Shown: positions 34,729 through 37,700 of the stretch, piece by piece
Position numbering within the stretch: the stretch's first letter is position 1
Layout of the letters: every line of letters begins with the position of its first letter
Assembly: GCA_964188305.1 (NCBI GenBank)
Contig: OZ076885.1
Strand: one strand, 5' to 3'
Source of the DNA: Podarcis bocagei
Taxonomy: Eukaryota
DNA length: 64,000 nt
Made by a program: the position numbers and the translations under genes
Notes under the pieces: model-generated
Database searches by the model: none
Seen by the model: the letters and a program-made list of their open reading frames with translations, nothing else
Told to the model about the DNA's origin: nothing

Positions 34729-37700
34729 GGGGGGGTGCATTTGCAATTCTAATGTAAAATCTGAATTGGCCAGAAGAATGCACATTTACACTATGAGCAA
34801 ATTTAAGGCAGAAACAAATACAACAAAGCCACTCCCCTCAAAAAATGCTTTTTAAGCCTCACTTGTGAGCACATTCCTTACTTGCAACCTTCCTCCTTCA
34901 CCTGCTGTTTTTCTCATTGTCTCTCACGAACTCTTCTCCCATTGACCTTTTCTGCATTCTCATATTCATTCATATCACACTGTTTACAATGCAAAAATCC
35001 CTTATCCTGTTTGTTCCCATGTTGAAAGGATGTGCCTTGGCCCACAGCCTCCCTGGGACTTCAAGGCTAGCCAGAAATTTAGGCCCAATCTGCTAGACCA
35101 AAATAGCACTAATTGTTAAAAGTGTTCATTTCAAGAGGAAAGCATTTTTGAGCTGCTTATTATGCTACCTTGGACAAGCTTTTTGCCTTTTCAGCAAGCA
35201 CCTTTTTCATTATTTAATGCAGTGGGATCTAATTGGGGGCAGGGGAGTTTATGCGATAATAAGTGTCTGGGTTTTTAAGATGCTTTGGTTTTTTTTGCTG
35301 CAACAGATTAAAGGGATTGCCCTTCCAGAAGTATTCACAATGTGGTTGTAATATCTTCATCATCATTATTTTATTATTTATACTCCGGGTTTCCCTAGCC
35401 ACTCTTGTAATAGTGCTTACTGCTCAGTCATTGGGAAATATGAAATAAACAGGGCAGGTGGCATTTCAAGGAGATGCTATTGTTTTTAATCGTCTCTTAA
35501 GATTCGGATGTGATTTTACATGGTTTCCCCACCCCAGGGTCAGGAAGGTGTAGCTGCAGCCCTGGCAGCTTGCAAAATCCTCCGAGAGATGTCCCACCTG
35601 GAGAAAGAAGCTGAAGTAGTCCGTAAAATGAAAGAGGCAAAATATGAGCAGCTTGCTGTGGGTAAGCGTATACAGTGTCAACCATTTAAAACTTGTCTGA
35701 GCAAACAGACCAAATGTACTTTTACAAGTCCCGTATTACCCTTGTTCCACGCTTGCAAGGAATCACGCTGTCAGGGATTTAGGAGCAGAGGCAAGGCCAA
35801 GGGAGGAAACAGAGAGCGAAGGGGAGGAGGCAGAAGAAAAGATGAGTGATGACGACGACCCGAGATCTCCTAGTCTTTCCAGTGAATCAGAGGATTCACA
35901 GAAAGGAGCACCAGTGGCCAGGGCAAGGGGGGAGTCTAGGGGGGCACCCCAGGAAGATAGAGCCAGAGGGGACTCAGGGGAGAGCAGTTGGAAATCGGGA
36001 CCAGCGTCACCGCCAGGGAGCAGGGAAGAAGAAGGGAGCCAGGGGGCAAGCGCTGGCAGCTCACCACAGGAGGGAGGGCATGAGTCAGGAGTGGCCACAC
36101 CTCCATCGGGGAGCGAAGAAACGGTTAAGAGGAAAGTGGAAGGTTGGGCGCGCGCGCCAAGTTCAAATGCAGAGGAAGGCGGCGCAGTAAGCAGCCCGGA
36201 AAGGGAACCAGGTCCTAAAGCCCGGCGCAAGGAGGCAGGAGGGTCCGGGTCAGCGTCAGAAGAATCCAGGAAGGAAGAAACCCCGGGGGGTAGAGGGACC
36301 CAGAGGAGGACAGTCAGGCGGAAAAGGTGGAGCAGGGCTAGGATATTAAGTTGGTGCACAAGGGGCGGAGACTCAGACGGAGCTTCGCCGATCTAGCTAC
36401 TAGACGTAGAGTTGCGCGCAGCAGCGTGAGAATGGAAACTGCAATTCAATAAAGACTTTTACTTAATGATCGCTGGCTAGCGTGATCCTCTGTGAGCTAG
36501 GATCTTCAAGCAGCTCTGACACACGCGTTTATTGTGGCAGCTTTAAAGGTTTAGTGCAGATGAGGCCAGAATGATTCCACCCACTTTTAACTGTCCAAAC
36601 TGCTTGAACCTCTGCAAAGTACCTACAGTCTGGAGATGACCTAACAGCATCAAATGGCAATTTGAGTTTTGCCTTCCTGTAATGGGTATCTGAACAGGGG
36701 GGACGGGGACTGCAAAGTATCTCTGCAATGGAGCAGGACAAATGTCTTCTCTCAAAGTAATTAAAACTCTGAGCAAGATACAAAGGTGGCATGCATTGAT
36801 GAGAATTGACTGGATCATAGCTCTACCAGTCAAACAAACCACTCAACATTAATATCAGGGCACAAGTTTTTGCCTTTCATGGGCTAGTTGATAGCCCCTT
36901 CTGGATAGGGGTTGCAAAATTACTGCTAGCCCTAGTAACACCTGGGATTGATTATAGCGATGGACTGTGCATGGGCTGTGGACTGTGCATGGGGTTCTTC
37001 TCAAAAACTTTAGCTAGTGACAGACTACTGACAGACAGGCACCACTGGGAACATCTCTTGCCACTTCTAAAAGACCTTAATTATCGTAGTCTCATTGCTG
37101 AGCAACAATGGGCAGAGCTTAGTGGATTGGGAGGCCAGCCAACCAGAAGAGTCTCAGAGGTGTACTTGCCTGTAGGCAGAGTCAGTGTCCAAAGTCCTAG
37201 GGTCAGGTGAACAGCAATCCATGTGGTCAGACGGTCCAGGGATCATGGAATCCAATGATCATTGGGGTCAAGGGTCAAGACAAGCAGGAAGCAGCAAGGT
37301 AGGGCCAGGACTACAATCCTTACCAGCAACTGAGTGCTGCTGGAAGTTCTGCTTAAGGAGGCTGAAGCCAGCTGGCTCTCATCATTGCCTTCTCCTCTGA
37401 GTCCTTGAAGGCTGATCAGTTGCAGGTGGAACCACTCTGCCTTCTCCCCCTTCAAGCTGCTGTTCAGCAGGCAAAGCTGGCTCCTGACCTATGGCATTAA
37501 TTGCTATCTGTAAATTTCCAGATATAATCCAAAGTGCTGGTTGGCGCCAGGGTGTCTAAAGGACCACCTCCTTCCAGCTGAACCTGTCTGGACTGTAATA
37601 TTATCCAAGGTGTTACTCCTCCAAGTGCCCCTGCCTGAGATTAGACAGCTGGTGACTGGAGATGATGAGCTATATCAGTTGTCCCACTTGGGATGGAAAC

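Follow-up and report, generated by a model that had tools for sequence, protein, structure and literature searches.

A reading frame in the LTR of a lizard chromovirus very probably encodes the C-terminal end of Pol

A solo LTR in a 64,000-nucleotide stretch of contig OZ076885.1 from Podarcis bocagei (assembly GCA_964188305.1; hereafter the window) contains a long reading frame that very probably represents the last 208 codons of Pol, the C-terminal tail of the integrase, because pol in the parent element runs unbroken into the TAG of the LTR. This LTR-encoded tail is under purifying selection. The full explanation that we favor, in which the frame belongs to a disordered integrase tail that carries nuclear-import and chromatin-tethering signals in an element with a centromeric bias, is reasonably probable, at a clearly lower level of confidence than the assignment to Pol.

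The solo LTR and its continuity with pol

The initial annotation described an LTR with TGTCAG and CTGACA ends and a perfect 5-bp target-site duplication, with an ATG-to-TAG frame of 184 amino acids containing acidic, basic and Arg-rich motifs, followed by AATAAA. All of these features were confirmed, and they are located together with the additional ones as follows:

35538..35661, + strand: exon of the host gene TRPM5 (phmmer E 1.9e-15 to TRPM5)
35764..35768, + strand: 5' target-site duplication, CACGC
35769..36521, + strand: solo LTR of 753 bp with TGTCAG...CTGACA ends, subfamily A of a Tf1/sushi-type chromovirus
35770..36396, + strand: LTR-encoded part of pol, very probably residues 1349-1556 (integrase C-terminal tail), plus the stop; in frame with pol in 21/23 two-LTR copies
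35842..36396, + strand: ATG-to-TAG sub-frame of 184 amino acids, the ATG being an internal Met of the tail
36127..36135, + strand: basic cluster 1 (KRK), which may form the first half of a bipartite NLS; largely kept across the subfamilies
36217..36231, + strand: basic cluster 2 (KARRK), likewise a candidate signal, 27 residues past cluster 1; kept in subfamilies A, B and C and in several Podarcis proteins
36295..36357, + strand: Arg-rich segment and then a W-x7-W-C motif, overlapping the TATA-like box
36344..36349, + strand: TATA-like TATTAA, 31 nt 5' of the self-primer, kept in subfamilies A, B and C
36375..36385, + strand: self-primer of 11 nt, the complement of the PBS in full-length copies; putative transcription start (U3/R border)
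36448..36453, + strand: polyadenylation signal AATAAA
36522..36526, + strand: 3' target-site duplication, CACGC

The solo LTR is placed in sense within an intron of TRPM5, 107 bp past the donor of the exon at 35538..35661. A fusion of this exon to the LTR frame was considered and rejected: read-through arrives in another frame and stops at 35849. The AATAAA of the LTR is also in sense within the intron, where it could cause premature polyadenylation.

The relationship of the frame to pol was examined in 24 stretches, one of which had a single LTR, leaving 23 two-LTR copies. In 21 of these, pol is open for 1,555-1,556 codons until the TAG inside the 3' LTR; one of the two exceptions has an internal stop and the other is deleted. 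The continuous frame passes through the integrase, a chromodomain that lacks the aromatic cage, the PPT and all of U3, and it stops just inside R. In subfamily B (~81% DNA identity), five of six copies have an open pol of 1,561 codons and the sixth has one of 1,392 codons. Among the older subfamily C copies that were fetched, one is open for 1,557 codons and the remainder are broken. The Podarcis muralis pol proteins P0005 and P0006 in UniRef have the same tail at their C-terminal ends. The initial annotation had proposed a separate accessory protein similar to Rev, Rex, Sag or Nef; the continuity with pol and the tail that the UniRef pol proteins share speak against this reading. The result also serves as a caution, in that open reading frames in such solo LTRs are probably the ends of Pol and not accessory genes.

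The parent element and its transcription start

The search for further copies and a full-length parent that the initial annotation had recommended identified an element of 6,547 bp, classed by its domains as Ty3/Gypsy. Its Gag is of the Ty3 type and has a CCHC knuckle. In pol, which overlaps gag, Pfam recognizes the enzymes in the order PR-RT-RH-IN (protease, RT, RNase H, integrase), together with an SH3 (GPY/F) region of the Tf2-1-like kind. This domain order and the Ty3-type Gag, a chromodomain at the integrase's C-terminal end and a self-priming PBS are the features of Tf1/sushi members. The parent is a young, active Ty3/Gypsy chromovirus of the Tf1/sushi type; it has no env-like frame and is not a retrovirus. 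The proposed squamate origin was correct. Those close protein relatives found that have a named host come from the lizards Podarcis muralis and P. lilfordi, from which a lacertid host would be probable. The protein searches gave 4, 3 and 6 matches, and the named ones were all from Podarcis except for one Rhineura pol, which aligned over the SH3 region only.

All 40 genomic matches to the LTR that were scored are 100% identical, and many occur as pairs 5,794 bp apart. A 35-mer specific to subfamily A is present in 479 LTRs, and its 47 loci on C1-C4 comprise 33 paired and 14 single ones. Duplications of 5 bp flank nine out of ten full-length copies. The 96-Mb contig C19 carries copies of subfamilies B and C by the dozen that are identical to one another, and those B loci that were examined have the same flanks as well. 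This suggests that C19 is an ampliconic chromosome and probably the W.

The heptamer GGGAAAC is located within the gag/pol overlap in all ten copies checked, and it resembles the slippery site of PEG10. The tail would be made as the end of Gag-Pol through a -1 frameshift at translation.

No tRNA-type PBS was found 3' of the 5' LTR. The 11 nt past the 5' LTR are complementary to positions 36375-36385 of the LTR, and the complementarity between self-primer and PBS extends over 10-11 nt in nine of ten elements, with 7 nt only in the tenth (L130). The self-primer and the PBS have changed together in subfamily B, in a compensatory manner, and a further compensatory change in both was found in copy L157. 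The MFE fold of the 5' UTR pairs the primer with the PBS, at a stability that is no greater than that of shuffles (z -0.93). Because this is the layout of Tf1/sushi self-priming, where the primer is the 5' end of the RNA (PMC10085805), transcription would start near 36375, with the stop codon ending 21 nt further downstream. If so, the promoter of a solo LTR or of the 5' LTR would not transcribe the frame; genomic RNA would start at the self-primer, only the copy in the 3' LTR would be translated, and the solo and 5' LTR copies would be silent passengers. The notion that a gene is spread with each solo LTR is difficult to uphold, as the putative start site sits at the end of the ORF and no expression would be expected. 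Contigs from three runs presumed to be RNA covered the whole element, and there was no spliced joint among the joints listed (206 further joints were outside this list), a result that counts neither for nor against a spliced RNA.

Alternatively, the 184-aa ATG frame might in addition yield an accessory protein of its own, whose RNA would be spliced or subgenomic or would come from solo LTRs through host read-through, and which would act on RNA export or chromatin. We consider this improbable. The ATG has an A at position -3, and subfamilies A, B and C all retain its Met; in a second lizard chromovirus (described below), an ATG is likewise present five bases into the LTR. Against a protein that starts at the ATG at 35842, as the initial annotation had it, the Met is absent from P0003, P0004, P0007 and P0009, four of the Podarcis relatives that cover the position, and selection is equally strong upstream and downstream of it. 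The putative transcription start is downstream of almost the whole ORF, and the donor-like GTAAG directly past the 5' LTR is the start of the PBS. Copy L157 (L157:1-2100) is internally deleted, with the 5' leader joined to the chromodomain, and keeps the chromodomain and the tail, but the deletion has microhomology at its ends and was seen once among the loci scanned. For the 184-aa frame, Pfam contained no stand-alone homologue and ESM Atlas no usable match, so that neither a family nor a structure match is at hand. The frame resembles MMTV sag, HIV nef and Rev/Rex in that a coding frame overlaps U3 and in its Arg-rich patch. The genes sag, nef and Rev/Rex are separate and are expressed from spliced RNAs, whereas the lizard frame is fused to pol in an element that lacks an env-like frame, and its likeness to Rev is compositional only.

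Selection on the tail and its sequence features

The ratio dN/dS between natural intact copies is 0.20-0.37 in the LTR-encoded part (bootstrap upper bounds up to 0.57), which agrees with the prediction of values below 1 between subfamilies in the initial annotation; it is 0.25-0.45 in the portion of the tail before the LTR and 0.04-0.13 in the folded enzyme domains. Substitutions between subfamilies A and B at codon positions 1/2/3 number 29/31/71. Retention of the ORF and of its frame, another check proposed at the outset, was found in 45 of 46 distinct LTRs from 60 loci, where indels in the coding part are of 3 nt (46/46 copies) or compensated (one), in a set of LTRs that was chosen by protein search and leans toward open frames. 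Indels in R/U5, at and past the stop, are mostly of 1-2 nt. Part of the conservation of the terminal residues may be due to promoter constraint, because the most conserved residues overlap the TATA box. The U3 of a vertebrate Gypsy element can bear promoter and protein constraint at once.

The frame has no stop from the second LTR base onward, which gives the 208 codons. The strong evidence is that from selection; the length of the ORF alone is modest evidence only, because a stop-free frame of at least 208 codons was obtained in 40 of 2000 dinucleotide shuffles of the LTR, and an ATG ORF of at least 184 codons in 17 of 2000. These shuffles and the base composition, with 97 T in 753 bases, are what would be expected if the frame had arisen incidentally in purine-rich, stop-poor U3 DNA and did nothing at the protein level. 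The dN/dS values, the bias toward third-position substitutions and the frame-keeping indels speak against this reading, which we regard as very improbable. The initial annotation had also cautioned that the antisense frame is open. This is true of the solo LTR described here, but one of three further copies tested, a subfamily B copy, has a stop in this frame. In the antisense ORF, the third codon position coincides with that of the sense frame, and the tail contains no Tyr; with the stop in the B copy, this ORF was rejected as a gene and is taken as a by-product.

Past the integrase, an HP1-like chromodomain was identified (E 0.0065), although Pfam Chromo was not matched, and all three of its cage aromatics are replaced. 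It is followed by ~370 residues, of which 208 are encoded across the whole U3. Just past the chromodomain, all ten pol proteins contain an acidic-aromatic stretch, a Ser/Thr linker and an FxGF motif in which x is variable (L032:5419-5523, pol 1190-1224). The FxGF segment, which is located just upstream of the LTR in full-length copies, resembles the LEDGF/HRP2 TND-interacting motif (TIM), defined as a hydrophobic helix, an acidic or Ser/Thr linker and FxGF (PMC9987994). Taken alone, the four-letter pattern is weak evidence, because it is also found once in the RT of eight of the ten pol proteins.

A single-sequence model of the 430-residue tail region has a mean pLDDT of 45 and is mostly coil. 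Within the LTR part, this low-confidence and largely uninformative model, too poor to search for related folds, shows a helix in the Arg-rich/W-x7-W-C segment alone. The Arg-rich segment (RGTQRR or RRTQRR) is a loose match only to the HMGN acidic-patch core. The SYWW and Arg-rich segments were also compared with a CENP-C-like pattern, and this reading was rejected since SYWW is not preceded by an Arg anchor and the Pro shows no conservation.

Judging from their sequence, the basic patches are plausible signals for nuclear entry or chromatin binding, and it is fairly likely that the tail would have a nuclear or chromatin-tethering role. In the mechanism that we favor, the protease would release an integrase with the long disordered tail, the two basic clusters would form a bipartite NLS by analogy to Ty1, and the Arg-rich segment would bind nucleosomes or DNA, for which an RRSARL sequence in the tail of the second chromovirus gives indirect support. 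The integrase eCTD of Ty1 is likewise a tail that is long, disordered and acidic and has its two basic clusters ~30 residues apart, and a bipartite NLS flanks its targeting motif (PMC10050235), while the integrase C-terminus controls centrophily in Tal1 (PMC11735389). Unlike the lizard element, Ty1 and Tal1 are Copia elements with tails that end before the LTR, which makes the resemblance an analogy with no known sequence homology.

Genomic distribution, a dispersed control family and known centromeric elements

The distribution of the family was studied from 239 listed 3' junctions on C1-C7, collected with three patterns and leaving out flanks that start with GT. As many as 67 of these insertion ends are located within 1 Mb of a chromosome end, compared to 4.3 expected (~16-fold), with 58 of the 67 at a single end of the respective chromosome; no cluster is present on C2 and C3. 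The young subfamily A has 14/47 copies in the terminal Mb, and ~70% of the young copies, among them the one in the window, are on chromosome arms. The ends without clusters contain nine insertion ends in 7 Mb and are somewhat enriched, which fits a subtelomeric rather than a centromeric effect.

Within the C6 cluster, from 40 to 410 kb, nine 10-kb windows consist of 48-100% family sequence, whereas ten of eleven windows from the opposite ends of C1, C6, C7, C8 and C9 are without the family and one has a single copy. Cluster windows with little or no family sequence are the C9 satellite windows and C7 at 94.6 Mb. Of the 55 junctions in the cluster samples, 49 have distinct flanks; the flanking sequence is satellite in 27 cases, the family itself in 10, telomere-like in 4 and other sequence in 14. 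The satellite into which the family inserts is AT-rich, with a length of ~500 bp and 38% GC, and is found at one end of several chromosomes (L183-L185, L189, L191; C9 left, C7 right) and in none of the eleven opposite-end windows. The first 100 listed of 2,650 matches to a 22-mer of the satellite all belong to the clusters of C1 and C4, and C2 and C3 have none among them; on C1, only eight matches to the satellite marker are left over 310 kb of nested elements. The satellite end is likely to be the centromere, because lacertid chromosomes are acrocentric and have pericentromeric telomere-like repeats (PMC7290949).

The second young self-priming chromovirus (L226-L228, on C4, C11 and C8) belongs to an unrelated family, with a pol that is 47% identical, and serves as a control. 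It has a single gag-pol frame of 1,558-1,564 codons with an intact chromodomain cage, and the frame enters the 3' LTR by 111-117 codons. Its LTR-encoded tail is acidic and then Arg-rich with RRSARL, the HMGN acidic-patch core (PMC12487698). Two copies differ by 4/6/17 substitutions at the three codon positions and one 18-nt indel. An LTR-encoded tail thus seems to be common among these lizard chromoviruses. The control family is dispersed, with 2/53 in the terminal Mb versus 67/239 in the clustered family (14/47 in subfamily A; Fisher p=5e-5). Since it has such a tail and is nevertheless dispersed, an LTR-encoded tail is insufficient for clustering. Differences between the two families concern the length of the tail and, outside the LTR, the chromodomain cage and the FxGF motif.

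In the favored mechanism, the tail, the cage-less chromodomain and the FxGF motif would together bias integration toward the centromeric satellite chromatin of the acrocentrics, by analogy to CRM and Tal1. It is doubtful that the LTR-encoded part itself would be a determinant of the bias. As an alternative, the tail may be a part of Pol that functions mainly as a flexible linker with an NLS, and the clusters may have formed by relaxed purging or amplification in satellite or subtelomeric heterochromatin with low recombination, rather than by targeting through the tail. The absence of clustering in the control family despite its acidic, Arg-rich LTR tail is in line with this alternative, as are the mild enrichment at the opposite ends and a dN/dS in the tail that is 3-5 times that of the enzymes. 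Duplication does occur, as illustrated by the flanks that are shared in L085-L088 and in many C19 copies, but 49 of the 55 cluster flanks are distinct. Relaxed purging should moreover have retained the equally young and intact control family in the same regions, and the youngest subfamily of the clustered element is already enriched there. We regard this alternative as unlikely.

The lizard element shares with the Tf1/sushi chromoviruses Sushi-ichi and Amn-san the CCHC Gag, PR-RT-RH-IN, the SH3 region, the chromodomain, the 11-nt self-priming PBS, the overlapping gag and pol, and duplications of mostly 5 bp, and differs from them in the loss of the three cage aromatics and in the residues past the chromodomain that extend across U3. 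A polyprotein frame that extends into the 3' LTR, a lost canonical chromodomain function and a concentration in centromeric satellites are characteristics of the plant CRM elements of group A (PMC3059260, PMC3605345), and the lizard element is similar in the first two respects and has copies concentrated in satellite-rich, putatively centromeric regions. For the CR motif, databases were consulted, and the LTR frame had no match in Pfam or ESM Atlas. In contrast to CRM, which is a plant clade and uses a tRNA-Met primer, the lizard element is self-priming, has a vertebrate host and keeps a degenerate chromodomain upstream of the PPT; most of its copies are on arms, and its cluster ends are probable centromeres. 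As an extension of integrase, the tail would be convergent on plant CRM; the element may act in a way similar to group A, to which it does not belong. A bolder reading is possible but rather unlikely: an active chromovirus with a preference for centromeres would have arrived at the CRM design, by losing the methyl-lysine cage and turning the whole U3 into a targeting tail for integrase, and would now be spreading through the centromeric satellite and taking its place on some chromosomes. If true, the clustered and the dispersed family would be a natural comparison for LTR-encoded tails that set integration sites in vertebrates.

There is only partial insight, mostly from plants, into how centromeric retrotransposons find the centromere (PMC11735389). 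In an atlas of 325 genomes, vertebrate centromeres are mostly of the satellite type (25/29); its main text is without lizards, and its supplements may list lizard elements (10.64898/2026.09.17.752431). We found no paper on a centromeric Gypsy element in lacertids or on a vertebrate pol frame spanning U3 in a literature that was mostly open-access and excluded Butler 2001 and Kordis 2005. An active vertebrate family in a satellite found once per chromosome, together with an equally young dispersed family that has a different tail, constitutes a testable system.

Two further observations concern the surroundings of the clusters. Near the cluster ends, copies L036, L138 and L146 are inserted directly in telomere-like TTAGGG arrays. 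A non-family sequence of 2.3 kb is shared by the cluster on C1 and that on C6 at ~98% identity (L157:2222-4516, L158, L159, L162, L177) and is possibly another element that shares the niche.
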